Counted from the first letter of the stretch, positions 53,401 to 59,400 are shown. The stretch is 64,000 nucleotides of DNA from Escherichia coli (GCF_045037415.1 NZ_CP173438.1), one strand, 5' to 3'. A program made the numbers.

Positions 53401-56400
53401 TGTAAGAAGCTGGTCGCATCGGGTATTCATTGCCTGATGCGACGCTTTCGCGTCTTATCATGCCTACATAGCTCATGCAATATATTGAATTTGCATGCTT
53501 TTGTAGGTCGGATAAAGCGTTCACGCCGCATCCGGCAATGTGCACCATGCGTTGGATGCGGCGCGAGCGCCTTATCCTACCTACGGATGGCACTGGTTTC
53601 CTCATTCACCCAGATCCGCATTTCGCCTTCACCCCGGTTGGCCCAGCTAAACCACGGGATAAACGTCAGAATTTGCGGCTGGCGTTTGGCTGGCGCGCTG
53701 TCGTAATGCCACAGCGGTTGCTGCTCTGGATTGCTCTGTTCATACCGGTAACCCGGTGCCTGGATTAAGATCTTATGGCGGAACAATCCATTACCTTCAA
53801 ATGTCGTAAATGGCGCATCGGCGGGCAGCCACAGATTATGCAGTGACTCGCCGTTGTCGACCTGTTCCAGACAATACACCAGCGGGCCGCGCTGAATCGC
53901 CACTTTTCCGGCGACGTGACGCACCAGCGGGTTACCGTAAACGCGACGTACCGGCATTGGCAAAGTCAGATTCAGCGTGTCGCCCTCCTGCCATTCACGG
54001 GTAATGTGCAAATACCCTTTACGAATATCCTGCTCGACCTCTTCCCCATTCAATATGATCTGCGGCTGTATGCACCAGTCCGGTAGACGTAAAGCCAGCG
54101 TATGACGCACCGGCTGGGGTGATTCAACCGCAATCGTCACCTGTTCCTGCCACGGATAGTTTCCGCTAACCCGCAGGCGCAGCGTGCCATTTTCTACCGG
54201 CACCTCCATGCTGTTTCCTGCGTAGATGTTGATATACAACGCATCTTCACGCGGCGTGTAGAGATAATGACCAATCGAGGTTAGCACGCGGGCGATATTT
54301 GGCGGACAACAAGCGCAGCCAAACCAACGCTGGCGGATCGGCTTAACGTGATCGTAGATATGGTTGAATTTCAGCGATTTTGGATGTACTTCCAGCGGAT
54401 TCACATAGAAGAAATGTTTGCCATCCAGCGCCATGCCGCCGAGCACGGTGTTGTACAGTGCGCGCTCCATCACATCGGCATATTGACTGTCGCCTTCCAT
54501 TTCCAGCATTCGTCGGGCAAACATCATCAGGCCGATGGAGGCGCAACTTTCAGCGTATACCGTGTCATTCGGCAGATCGTAATCGCTGCTGAACGCTTCA
54601 CCGCTGCTCTGTGAGCCAATGCCGCCGGTAATATATAACTGACGCTGGGCCATATTGTTCCACAGCCGCAGGCAGTCCTGACGCTTGCTTTCATCGTGAC
54701 TTAAACGCGCGAGATGCGCGACGCCGGTCATCAGGTAGACAAAACGTACCGCGTGACCAATGGCGGTTTGCTGCTGTGCGATGGGCAAATGTGCCTGGCT
54801 GTAGGCTTTGTCTTTCACCATCCACGCCGGGCCGTAGGTGTGCCAGTGCGAGGTCTGCCCGCGCTTTTCATATTCCTGGTCGTAATAGTGCGGTTGCGCA
54901 CCACGCTGTTCGACAAAATAGTTCGTCAGCGCCAGGTAGCGCGGCTCTTCGGTCACTTCATACAGGCGCATTAGTGCCAGTTCAATTTCCGGGTGACCAG
55001 GATAACCATGTAACTTACTTTCATCTGGACCAAATACGCTGTCGATATGATCGGTCAGACGGCAAACCACTTCCAGCAAGCGCCGCTTGCCCGTAGCCTG
55101 GAAGAAGGCGACTCCGGCTTCAATCAGATGACCGGCGCAGTAAAGTTCATGACACTCCGCCAGATTGCTCCAGCGTTCTTCGGGCGCTTTTACCGTAAAG
55201 TAAGTATTGAGATAGCCATCTTCGCACTGGGCGGAAGCGATCAGTTCAATCACCTCGTCGGCGGTTTTTTCCAGTTCGGCGTCCGGCTTCTGGCACAGCG
55301 ACCAGGCTACCGCTTCCAGCCATTTGGCGACGTCGCTGTCCTGAAACACCATCCCGTAAAATTCACCCTCCTGAAGTCCGGCGGCAATGCGAAAGTTTTC
55401 AATCGCATGGCTGGGTTCCGCTTCTGGGATACGATCGTTCAAGGCATCCCACTGATAAGGAATCACCACGTCGCGGACCAGTTGTTGGTACTGACCGAGG
55501 AACGGATCGCTGACCGTCAGTTTATGCAGATCGACTTCCGAAATGTTCATCTTGTGCTCCTTAAGGCTGTACATGACGCTGACGCAGGTCGCTAGCAATG
55601 CGTGACATCATAGGGTTATTGAGTTTGCAAAAGCGGATCGCCATCGCCAGCAGCAGGTGGAACAGCGCAGGCAGCAATGTTTCCATCGCCGCGATCCCGC
55701 CAAGCGAACTGGCGGTCTGGTTTTCCACGCCTGGCTGGTAGGCGACAAAAATAAACAGCAGGCTGATGATCCCGGCGCTGGAGGCCCAGGCCAGCTTGAT
55801 GAAAAACAGATTGAAGGCGAAGTTCATGCCGGAAGAACGTACGCGGGTTTTCCACTCGCCGTAGTCATCGGCAAAGGCCATCAATGAGAAGTGCAGTGGC
55901 AATGTGAAGCCAAGAATCACGCCATTACCGAGGATCACCACCAGCCACAGCGTTTGATAAGCCGGGCTGGAGGGCAGGAACCACATCAACACCGCCAGTG
56001 CAGCGAGGAGCAGGTTGGTGTAGTAGTAAATTTTGACGGTATCGAAACGCCGCGTTAATGGGCTGACAATCACCGAGCCGATAATGGAGGCGAAGGTGAC
56101 CATGGTGAAGAACAGCGACGTGTAGCCCGTACTGCCTTGTAAGACGTAGGTAATGAAGTACATATACCCACCGCCGCGAATATTAAAGACGTTAATCAGC
56201 AGGAAAGACATGACCAGCATCAGCAGCAGTTGGTCGTTGTTCCGCAGCCCGGCAAGATGTTCGCGCAGGGTAAATTTCCCCATTGTGGAGAGTGGCACCC
56301 GTTCACGAACCCAGAAGAAACAGCACAGGAACATCACCACGGCAATGGCGCACAATACGCCGACGCCAAGTTGATAGCCGCGTGCAGCGTTGCCCTGACC

Positions 56401-59400
56401 GAAGAGATCTACCATCCACGGTAAGCCTACCGAAACCAGAAATCCCGCTACGCCGCAGAGAACGAATCGCCAGGACTGGCAGGAGATCACTTCATTGTGG
56501 CGGGTGGTCATGGTGTTGATCAGCGCGCAGTACGGTACGTTGATGGCTGTATAACCGACTGAAAGGAGCAGGTAAGTACCGAACGCCCAGGCGATTTTTA
56601 CTCCCATGCTGGCATCTGGCACGGTGAATGTCAGGATGCCGATAATGCCGATGGGAATGGCAATCCATAACTGCCACGGACGAAAGCGCCCCCAGCGACT
56701 TTGCGTCCGGTCGGCAATGACGCCCATCACCGGGTCGGAGATGGCATCAAACACGCGTAGCGCAATAAACAGCGTGCCAACCAGCGCCGGAGTTAAGCCA
56801 AAAACGTCGGTGTAGAAAAAGGTGAGAAAGTTCATGATCAGGCAAGTTATTACGGTGCCGCCTGCGTCACCCAGGCCGTAGCCTATTTTTTCCCGTACAG
56901 ATAACGCATCGTCAATTTTACCTTTAGCGATATCAGCGGTGGTAATCGGTGTAGAGGTCATAGATATTCCTCGTGAATAGGGAGCAATTTTTAGTTTTAT
57001 TGCAATGACCTGATTAATTCTGCCGTGAACGGGAATATCAACAAGGCGAGAAAAGAGTAAAAAAAGGTGACGATTCCGACCTGAATTTAAAAGTGTGAAA
57101 TGGATCAGGTGAAATTAATGTTTTTGATTAATAATCAAAAGGTAATGTGTTTAATCATTAATGAATAAGCGGGAAATTACATATCAATGCTCGAATTATC
57201 CATGACGTTACCGATTAAAGTGCAAAATGGTGGATTATTTATTTCCCGTGGCGTAGGGAGGCATCCTGCAAGGCGGCTGGAGTCATGGGAAATTATCTTC
57301 GTCGAAAAAGGTCGATTAACGATTCAGGAAGATGAACGGATATTTCTGGTCGATGCGGGAGAGAGTTTATTACTCTGGCCGAACCGACAGCATGTTGGGG
57401 TGGAGGATTTTCCCGCCGATCTCAAATTTTACTGGCTGCATTTTGAGGTTAAAGCGCCGGACAACGATCCGCGCTGGCTCACTCATCTTAGCGTGCCGCA
57501 ACAAACTAAGGTTGCCGATCCGCAGGTGCTGGTGGCCTTGTTTCGCCAGTTCTTAAGCGAACAGGAAAAGCATCAACGCACTCCGGCGCTGGAGTTTATT
57601 GTGCTGCTGATTTTGCAGCAGCTCACCCGTGACGCGCGTCTTGATGAACAGGCCGATGGTGCAGGCACCACCCTTGCCTGGAAAGCGCAGAAACTGATTC
57701 GCACGCAATATCACCGCCCGCTTTCCACGGCGCTTTTAGCCCGCGAGCTGTACTGCAATGCCGATTATCTTGGGCGCGTCTATCGGCGGGTGTTTCATCT
57801 GACGTTAACAGAAGCAATCCACCGCCAGCGGGTGCGCGAAGCCGAAAAGCTGTTAATTAGCGAAGCGCGATCGCTCACGGAAGTGGCGGCGTTGTGCGGG
57901 TTTAATGACGTCGGCTATTTCCGGCAGATTTTTCGCAAACACACCGGCTTAACGCCAGCAGCGTGGAAGCGGCGTTACAGCAAGGAACATATCAATTCGT
58001 AGTGCCGGGGCGATGAAGCCCCGGCGTGAGGGATTACTGCCCGTAATAGGCATTGGCCCCATGCTTACGCAGGTAGTGCTTATCCAGCAGTTCGTTTTGC
58101 ATCGCAGGGAGCTGTGGCGCAAGCTGGCGCGAGAACAGACCCATATAGGCGCACTCTTCCAGTACCACGGCGTTATGCACCGCATCGGCGGCATTTTTTC
58201 CCCAGGCGAACGGGCCGTGAGAATGCACCAGTACCGCCGGGATTTGTGCCGGGTTCAACCCACGCTCTTCGAAGGTTTTAATGATCACTTCGCCGGTCTG
58301 GTATTCATACTCACCGTTGATCTCTTCTGCGGTCATCAGGCGCGTGCAGGGGATGGCTCCGTAAAAATAATCGGCGTGAGTAGTGCCCCAGGCGGGGAGA
58401 TCAAGTCCGGCCTGCGACCAGATGGTGGCGTGGCGCGAGTGGGTATGCACTATGCCGCCAATCTCCGCAAAGCGACGGTAAAGCGCCAGATGCGTTGGCG
58501 TGTCGGAAGAGGGCTTTTTGCTGCCTTCCACCACCTTGCCGCTGGCTATCTCAACCACCACCATATCGTCGGCGGTCATTACCTCATACTCAACGCCGGA
58601 AGGCTTAATCACCATCCATTGCCGCGTTTCGTCTATCGCGCTGACATTGCCCCAGGTGAACGTCACCAGATGATGAACGGGAAGCGCCAGGTTTGCCGCC
58701 AGCACGTCAGCTTTCAGTTGCTCTAACATATAAATCCGGCCTCCTGCATACGCGCTTCAATCCAGCGCCGCGCCTGAATAATCTCCAGCACCGGCTCTTT
58801 GGCTTTTTCGGTCCACATCTCAATCAGGAAAGAACCGCGATAGTTCAGCTCATGCAGCGTTTTGAAGATGCCAACAAAATCGACACAGCCTTCGCCAAAC
58901 GGCACATCGCGGAACTGTCCGGGGCTATGTTCGGTAACGGGTTGAGTGTCTTTCAGGTGGATGGCGGCGATACGGTCGATGCCCAGTTTCAGTTCGGCGG
59001 GAACATCATTGCCCCAGGCGCTGAGATTGCCGACGTCCGGGTAAACGGTGAACCACGGTGACGCAAGCATTTCGTCCCACTTTTTCCATTTGCTGATAGA
59101 GTTCATAAACGCGGTGTCCATAATCTCCACCGCCAGCATGACTTGTGATGCCGCTGCCTGTTCAACCGCCCACGCCAGCCCTTCAGCAAACCGTTGCTGG
59201 GTGCCTTCGTCATGATCTTCGTAATAGACGTCGTAACCTGCCAGTTGAATAGTACGAATGCCGAGATCGCGTGCCAGGCGAATCGCTTTACTCATAATCT
59301 CCCGCGCCCGCTGGCGCACGGCGTCGTCCCGGCTACCAAAAGGAAAACGACGATGTGCGGACAGGCACATTGACGGAATAGCAACACCCGTTTCGAGCAT

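Follow-up and report, generated by a model that had tools for sequence, protein, structure and literature searches.

In Escherichia coli the gene pairs yicJ-yicI and yagG-yagH each place the gene of a GPH symporter immediately upstream of the gene of a cytoplasmic glycoside hydrolase, from family GH31 and GH43, respectively. Another glycoside hydrolase family, GH127, includes two solved beta-L-arabinofuranosidases, HypBA1 of Bifidobacterium longum (3WKW) and the intracellular Ara127N of Geobacillus stearothermophilus T6 (4QJY/4QK0), the latter a Gram-positive enzyme that we take to come from an L-arabinan utilisation cluster. The name Ara127N is that of the PDB entry and of its citation in PMC7889515. 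HypBA1 is described as a "cysteine glycosidase" in which Glu322 is the acid/base, Cys417 is the nucleophile and Glu338, Cys340, Cys417 and Cys418 hold a Zn2+ ion; it cleaves imported beta-Ara2 inside the cell, as part of a system that also comprises the GH121 enzyme HypBA2 and an ABC importer (PMC8106489). Here we describe a module of three genes, encoding a GH127 hydrolase, a GPH:cation symporter and an AraC-family regulator, at 53577-58002 between aldB and sgbE in a 64,000-nucleotide stretch of E. coli DNA (GCF_045037415.1, NZ_CP173438.1). This whole stretch is called the window below, and positions are counted from its first letter.

The module has something in common with each of these systems and departs from each. 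Its hydrolase matches Ara127N over the full length and shares its three-domain build and its catalytic and zinc residues, and both enzymes are intracellular as judged from the lack of a signal peptide; in the module, however, the enzyme is partnered by a GPH symporter and a regulator of the AraC type. With the HypBA1 system it would share the import of a small beta-L-arabino-oligosaccharide followed by cytoplasmic cleavage by a cysteine glycosidase. It differs from that system in its presumed uptake route, a cation symporter in place of an ABC transporter and binding protein, in the type of its regulator, and in having no extracellular GH121 or GH43 partner and so no means of releasing oligosaccharides; its hydrolase is also less similar to HypBA1 than to Ara127N. 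The order of symporter and hydrolase genes is that of yicJ-yicI and yagG-yagH, but the transporter is a paralogue scoring below the YagG and YicJ-type cut-offs, and the module has a divergent regulator gene of its own. We read the locus as an old enterobacterial operon, inherited vertically and intact here, that would scavenge small beta-L-arabinofuranosides, a reading to which we give a probability of roughly two in three.

Gene identities and conserved active site

All three open reading frames (ORFs) were present in the window (Table 1). A TTG codon offers an alternative start for the hydrolase and gives a longer ORF of 673 amino acids. The symporter gene ends in TAA (55561-55563), and an AAGGAG ribosome-binding site overlaps this stop codon; together with the 10-nt gap this is a typical operon junction. 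The symporter and glycosidase genes are co-transcribed, or at least tightly coupled, and lie beside the gene of a ligand-binding AraC-type regulator. Coding sequence in the module has a G+C content of 0.53-0.57, which is ordinary for E. coli, and the 225-bp spacer between the divergent symporter and regulator genes is A+T-rich (G+C about 0.40). The module is flanked by aldB (+), which ends at 53400, and by sgbE (-), whose end is at 58034. No mobility genes were found within or adjoining the module.

Table 1. Coordinates of the module, its control region and its flanks in the window
Feature	Position	Strand	Description
REP/BIME cluster	53413-53584		three REP units, from inverted repeats and Rfam; apparent scar of the yiaWVUT deletion
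GH127 hydrolase	53577-55550	-	657 amino acids; ATG at 55550, stop at 53577-53579
Intercistronic gap	55551-55560	-	10 nt (GGAGCACAAG) between the GPH stop and the hydrolase ATG
GPH:cation symporter	55561-56961	-	466 amino acids; predicted glycoside importer
Conserved block GGCAGAATTAATCAGGTCA	57006-57025	-	includes CAGAAT, candidate -10 of the GPH-GH127 promoter
50-bp block CAGGTCGGAATCGTCACCTTTTTTTACTCTTTTCTCGCCTTGTTG	57036-57085	-	presumed activator site; its last bases, TTGTTG, resemble a weak -35
CRP-like site TGTGAaatggaTCAGG	57094-57109	+	TGA-N6-TCACA, between the divergent genes, about 90 nt upstream of the implied start
Conserved block ATTAATAATCAA	57126-57141	+	candidate -10 (AATAAT) of the regulator promoter
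AraC-family regulator	57187-58002	+	271 amino acids; N-terminal cupin ligand domain and C-terminal double helix-turn-helix
G+C-rich hairpin GCCGGGGC/GCCCCGGC	58004-58025		8-bp stem and 6-nt loop; the regulator gene and sgbE converge on it

The hydrolase belongs to GH127 by every sequence criterion that we applied. It has the three-domain build of the family, a catalytic (alpha/alpha)6 domain followed by middle and C-terminal beta domains, with Pfam matches to PF07944 (5.7e-112, residues 12-427), PF20736 (2.5e-23, residues 438-532) and PF20737 (3.3e-25, residues 534-649). Among PDB chains it matched the Geobacillus GH127 beta-L-arabinofuranosidase 4QJY with an E-value of 5e-234 and 782 bits (residues 11-650 against 16-647) and HypBA1 with 7e-152 and 510 bits. 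In the HMMER alignment to 3WKW, residues E318, E334, C336, C414 and C415 fall on HypBA1 E322, E338, C340, C417 and C418. The catalytic pair is therefore kept, C414 corresponding to the nucleophile Cys417 and E318 to the acid/base Glu322, and so is the Cys3-Glu zinc site, formed by E334, C336, C414 and C415 in the motifs ESCAS and GCACCPPN. Residue 11 of the hydrolase aligns with residue 3 of HypBA1, which leaves no room for a signal peptide, so that the enzyme should be cytoplasmic. Its closest solved homologues bear the name beta-L-arabinofuranosidase (EC 3.2.1.185), and this is the activity that we predict for it.

The symporter scored 333.7 bits against the GPH model TIGR00792 (TC 2.A.2; cut-off 231.35) over residues 25-462 of 466. 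It reached none of the named GPH models: YagG, its best NCBIfam subfamily match, gave 358 bits against a cut-off of 610, MelB 211 against 456, the glucuronide transporter 194 against 528, and PRK11462 327 against 836. By these scores it is a separate GPH paralogue, below the cut-offs of all named members. The regulator has the double helix-turn-helix and AraC-type cupin ligand domain of the AraC/XylS family, with Pfam matches to HTH_18 (4e-19, residues 184-263), AraC_binding (6e-9, residues 26-132) and HTH_AraC (5e-8). It is not an AraC orthologue, with 60.9 bits against the AraC equivalog NF007860 (cut-off 208).

A first-pass annotation of the window had proposed these three genes, with a 10-nt spacing and a divergent regulator. 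The ORFs agree with it in position and orientation, and the Pfam, NCBIfam and PDB-chain matches agree with its family assignments. It had also described a unit flanked by a repetitive extragenic palindromic (REP) cluster on one side and a GC-rich hairpin on the other, with no mobility genes, and all of this was recovered. Its candidate class of substrates, beta-L-arabinofuranosides, fits the closest solved relatives of the hydrolase, 4QJY and HypBA1.

Inverted repeats place REP-like palindromic units at about 53428-53467, 53503-53540 and 53554-53584. In 53460-53581, Rfam gave ES036 (CssrF) at 40.7 bits, above the gathering score, and naRNA4 at 56.2 bits on both strands, just below it. We read these as REP-derived models and not as evidence of a specific small RNA gene; matches were limited to such families in this flank, and Rfam returned nothing in the control region. 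The hairpin on the other flank is kept in K-12. It has no T-run and is absent from the list returned by the terminator scan.

Locus states in E. coli and inheritance across genera

We used junction-specific queries to count the states of the locus among 5426 complete E. coli genomes. The module was present in 2311 (about 43%; 4.8-kb query, at least 80% coverage). The K-12 type, in which aldB-yiaW-V-U-T is followed by two short pseudogenes and sgbE, was found in 2460 genomes, including NEB10-beta and MG1655. Both segments, in the order aldB-yiaW-yiaV-yiaU-yiaT-GH127-GPH-AraC-sgbE, were found in 1255 (for example PEC1012), and the window type, aldB-GH127-GPH-AraC-sgbE, in 566 (for example strain 875). 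Neither segment was present in 481, where aldB abuts sgbE (for example Seattle 1946 and Nissle 1917). About 490 module-bearing genomes were left with other left-hand junctions. With yiaWVUT and the module next to each other in 1255 genomes, the two are neighbours, not alternatives.

The two K-12 pseudogenes adjoining sgbE, ysaD (b4649) and ysaC (b4648), are remnants of the module. ysaD corresponds to window positions 53688-53877 (hydrolase residues of about 558-621) and is 88% identical, with seven of 63 residues changed. ysaC is a C-terminal fragment made of the last 102 nt of the regulator gene, from window position 57899 onward, and is fused directly to the ysaD fragment. Pairwise mapping of K-12 to the window thus gives a clean deletion of 4021 bp (53878-57898), with the 3' end of the hydrolase gene gone as well. 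In a three-way alignment of the window with strains that have both segments, the match breaks inside the REP unit at 53503-53540, whose left half follows the aldB-side REP and whose right half follows the yiaT-side REP of the yiaWVUT strains. The window strain has apparently lost yiaWVUT by a crossover between these two REP elements that removed about 3.8 kb. Two independent deletions, starting from an ancestor with both segments, best account for the arrangement in the window. The ancestral order would have been aldB-yiaW-V-U-T-GH127-GPH-AraC-sgbE; the window strain lost yiaWVUT, apparently through the REP crossover, and K-12 and about 45% of E. coli lost the module through the 4-kb deletion.

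The module extends well beyond E. coli. One scan of species-representative genomes returned 80 loci, of which 68 had the triad in the same arrangement, with a divergent regulator and the symporter gene immediately upstream of the hydrolase gene. They include loci of Citrobacter, Klebsiella, Raoultella, Enterobacter, Kluyvera, Leclercia, Lelliottia, Pantoea and Mixta, and of Salmonella enterica subsp. diarizonae. Among the species loci, sgbE or sgbU was a neighbour of the triad in 26 and aldB in 42, and yiaT or yiaU lay between the two in 23. Across genera the median protein identity was 87% for the symporter, 83% for the hydrolase and, lowest of the three, 69% for the regulator, values typical of orthologues. 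The conservation of the triad bears out the earlier picture of a self-contained, regulated unit for glycoside uptake and cleavage. Within E. coli the three genes had dN/dS ratios (nonsynonymous to synonymous substitution rates) of 0.06-0.11, indicating purifying selection, and their dS of 0.06-0.12 is of the same order as that of aldB (0.15). Taken together with the ordinary composition and the absence of mobility genes, these dS values argue for vertical inheritance with repeated loss: the module is an old enterobacterial operon that has been differentially lost, not an island.

The first-pass annotation had taken another view, in which the module is an acquired or exchanged alternative cassette that replaces yiaTUVW. 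It had K-12 right in that yiaW-V-U-T lies there between aldB and sgbE, but the segment adjoins the position of the module and does not occupy it. Seen from the window, where aldB directly precedes the module without yiaWVUT, and from K-12, which has yiaWVUT and no intact module, an exchange looks natural, and the slot beside aldB does vary. The two segments are nevertheless adjacent in the 1255 genomes that hold both. The annotation had named the same three genes at this position in K-12 as what would refute it, and K-12 goes half way to that: it retains fragments of two of the three, those for the hydrolase and the regulator. The same context recurs in Citrobacter, Enterobacter, Klebsiella, Lelliottia and S. 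diarizonae, and the module has no mobility genes, an ordinary G+C content and a dS like that of the flanking core genes. We therefore regard replacement as very improbable. A horizontally acquired island or replacement cassette was likewise rejected as an origin on the absence of mobility genes, the G+C content, the triad in 68 of 80 loci and the coexistence with yiaWVUT.

Further variation was seen around the module. In isolate 31B22CPO057 a type I restriction endonuclease gene and hicA/hicB take the place of yiaWVUT (locus L008, 2640-4804), so the aldB-proximal slot is the truly variable site. Strain 2009C-3554 has aldB-yiaW-V-U-T-GH127-GPH-AraC and lacks the whole yiaK-sgbE operon; its regulator gene abuts the C-terminal remnant of an IclR-family gene (locus L006, 11508-11648), followed by ysaA and avtA, which is a further deletion state. 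In strain 21AR0275 (NZ_CP187203.1, 130959-136537), otherwise identical, an IS1A element is inserted within the module region, and its AraC-family gene is labelled only "helix-turn-helix domain-containing protein", which suggests disruption. A second presence/absence polymorphism lies nearby: a gene for a 431-amino-acid Fic-family protein (50459-51754, +) stands between yiaY and aldB in the window; strains 875, Seattle 1946, 2009C-3554 and 31B22CPO057 have it, whereas K-12 and PEC1012 do not.

Outside the family, the scan also returned Bradyrhizobium spp. (loci L080-L085) with a GH127 enzyme 72% identical to that of E. coli and with neither symporter nor regulator. This identity is unusually close for a comparison of alpha- and gamma-proteobacteria. 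In one of these loci (L082, 4701-8953) an ORF for an S9 (oligopeptidase B-like) peptidase lies directly upstream of the GH127 gene; any link to arabinosylated hydroxyproline peptides is pure speculation.

Control region between the divergent genes

We aligned the spacer between the divergent genes from 16 genera and found near-invariant islands amid DNA that otherwise drifts freely. The 50-bp block stands out with a mean column conservation of 0.74-0.96, against 0.44-0.6 in the adjacent spacer. In the block at 57006-57025, C, A, A, A and T are invariant; in its hexamer CAGAAT, 16 nt beyond TTGTTG, the invariant positions include A2, A4, A5 and T6. TGATTAT is invariant in the block at 57126-57141, and so are TCACA and the opposite TGA of the CRP-like site. 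The promoter roles given to 57006-57025 and 57126-57141 are putative, and the 50-bp block is presumed to be the site of the AraC-family activator, judging from its position. Two copies of the heptamer TCAGGTC, at 57007-57013 and 57078-57084, are spaced about 71 bp apart in the control region; one copy begins the conserved 50-bp block, the other falls just past the candidate -10, and they might form a pair of half-sites for the regulator.

This layout recalls araC-araBAD, where the activator site abuts the -35 and CRP binds beyond it. Common to both are a divergently oriented gene of the AraC family, a conserved stretch of about 40-50 bp next to a weak -35, placed like araI, and a CRP-like site roughly 90 nt before the implied start. 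They differ in that the regulator of the module is distant from AraC and that the assignments made here come from conservation; a counterpart of the distal O2 site was not identified in the control region. If the parallel holds, expression would be activator-dependent and catabolite-sensitive, as we infer from the layout.

Elsewhere in the window, four perfect or near-perfect CRP sites (TGTGA-N6-TCACA) lie at 43084-43260, upstream of an ORF of 637 amino acids (41027-42940, -). The ORF has the length of MtlA, and the cluster is presumably the known multi-CRP promoter of mtlA.

Substrate, objections and meaning for E. coli

As we picture it, the symporter would import a small glycoside, most plausibly a beta-linked L-arabinofuranosyl di- or oligosaccharide such as Araf-beta1,2-Araf (Araf, L-arabinofuranose). 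The cytoplasmic GH127 enzyme would cleave it with its zinc-held cysteine nucleophile, and the L-arabinose released would enter the core araBAD pathway. The divergent AraC-family protein would activate the GPH-GH127 promoter from the conserved 50-bp site, with the CRP-like site further upstream. The natural candidates best documented as substrate are Araf-beta1,2-Araf itself and related fragments of hydroxyproline-rich glycoproteins, arabinan, arabinogalactan proteins (AGPs) and rhamnogalacturonan-II (PMC8106489, PMC7889515, PMC10850190). The source could be plant hydroxyproline-rich glycoproteins, arabinan or AGPs; as the module comes with no secreted enzyme for the release, other microbes or plant turnover would have to supply the substrate.

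The unit might instead act on another furanoside or unusual sugar glycoside, with a linkage of, say, the aceric-acid or anhydro-sugar type, or on an arabinoside of plant secondary metabolism, in which case the product need not be L-arabinose. GH127 is a polyspecific family that includes aceric-acid hydrolase and 3,6-anhydro-D-galactosidase members. The sole NCBIfam match of the hydrolase is the aceric-acid hydrolase model NF049879 (453.8 bits, best stretch 252-649), and the PDB chains 6EX6 and 5MQO, the latter of aceric-acid hydrolase type, match as well. The regulator is not an AraC equivalog, and the genes next to the module in other genera gave no clue to the substrate (selB, selA and a glutathione S-transferase gene in Klebsiella; EmrAB-like efflux genes in locus L014; genes of an S9 peptidase and a sensor kinase in Bradyrhizobium). 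Against this, the score for NF049879 is far under the equivalog cut-off of 950, which places the hydrolase outside the aceric-acid equivalog, and in full-length similarity the enzyme is far nearer to 4QJY and HypBA1 (782 and 510 bits) than to 5MQO (324 bits). A substrate of another kind is on this evidence unlikely, and we keep beta-L-arabinofuranosides as the predicted class.

Besides the breadth of GH127, several points weigh against an arabinofuranoside-scavenging operon that is intact in this strain. To our knowledge no secreted E. coli enzyme would release such oligosaccharides, and the supply of substrate is assumed. In the literature searched, which covered GH127/DUF1680 in E. coli and other enterobacteria, ysaC/ysaD, and O157 and arabinofuranosidase, we found no functional study of the operon and no enzyme, transport or expression study of any enterobacterial member. 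In seven other genera, too, aldB stands directly beside the GH127 gene, which leaves the family-wide ancestral state of yiaT-W not fully settled. The CRP-like match is not above chance as a pattern (15 found in the whole window against 24.7 expected, at up to two mismatches), and a scan for consensus sigma-70 promoters gave none in 53350-58100; the regulatory model therefore draws on conservation across genera.

The last of these points concerns the hydrolase gene itself. The Prokaryotic Genome Annotation Pipeline (PGAP) marks identical or 99.7%-identical alleles, in strains 875 and AVS0655, as "frameshifted", which would fit a decaying pseudogene and a module that is non-functional here. There is indeed a 1-nt indel relative to other alleles, but it falls six codons before the stop, beyond the last conserved residue (…RIWVNEE). 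The tail that follows reads TSAIRR in the window-type allele and KHCHP or KHRHPEVG elsewhere, so that alleles annotated as intact differ there among themselves too. The window hydrolase is 97% identical to such alleles, and the difference is confined to these last six or so residues. The Pfam C-terminal domain stops at residue 649, and the 4QJY chain stops at the equivalent position. The stop codon and the last codons sit within the third REP unit (53554-53584), which accounts for the variable C-terminal tail and for some alleles being called frameshifted, and the remainder of the gene has a dN/dS of 0.07-0.09. Because the change is limited to the non-conserved tail, we judged decay quite improbable and treated the hydrolase gene as functional.

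In RefSeq the three genes already carry family names, and the remnants in K-12 have already been listed as pseudogenes. The module is an uncharacterised one of known kinds, with nothing surprising in kind, and amounts to a testable nutritional trait, invisible in K-12, in about four of ten E. coli. The locus is also a clean example of one ancestral segment giving rise to four or more arrangements by independent deletions, one of them apparently a REP crossover.

More tentatively, and with somewhat less confidence than even odds would express, about 43% of E. coli and most Enterobacteriaceae may feed on plant beta-L-arabinofuranosyl oligosaccharides through a cation symporter, unlike the ABC route of Bifidobacterium. 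The oligosaccharides would come from plant extensins, AGPs or pectin and would probably be released by bifidobacteria or Bacteroides. Such feeding would make a niche trait based on cross-feeding, one overlooked because K-12 has deleted the module. It would contradict a published study of O157:H7 on plants, according to which L-arabinofuranose is not directly accessible to E. coli (PMC8489885). The trait might also lie behind the report that the GH127 gene is among the accessory genes co-segregating with epithelial invasion in isolates from inflammatory bowel disease, an association that is correlative (PMC11879602). L-arabinose use has recently been tied to the gut fitness of enterohaemorrhagic E. 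coli and Salmonella (PMC11127945). If our prediction is true, L-arabinose from plants is within reach of many commensal and pathogenic E. coli by a route that is absent from the K-12 model.

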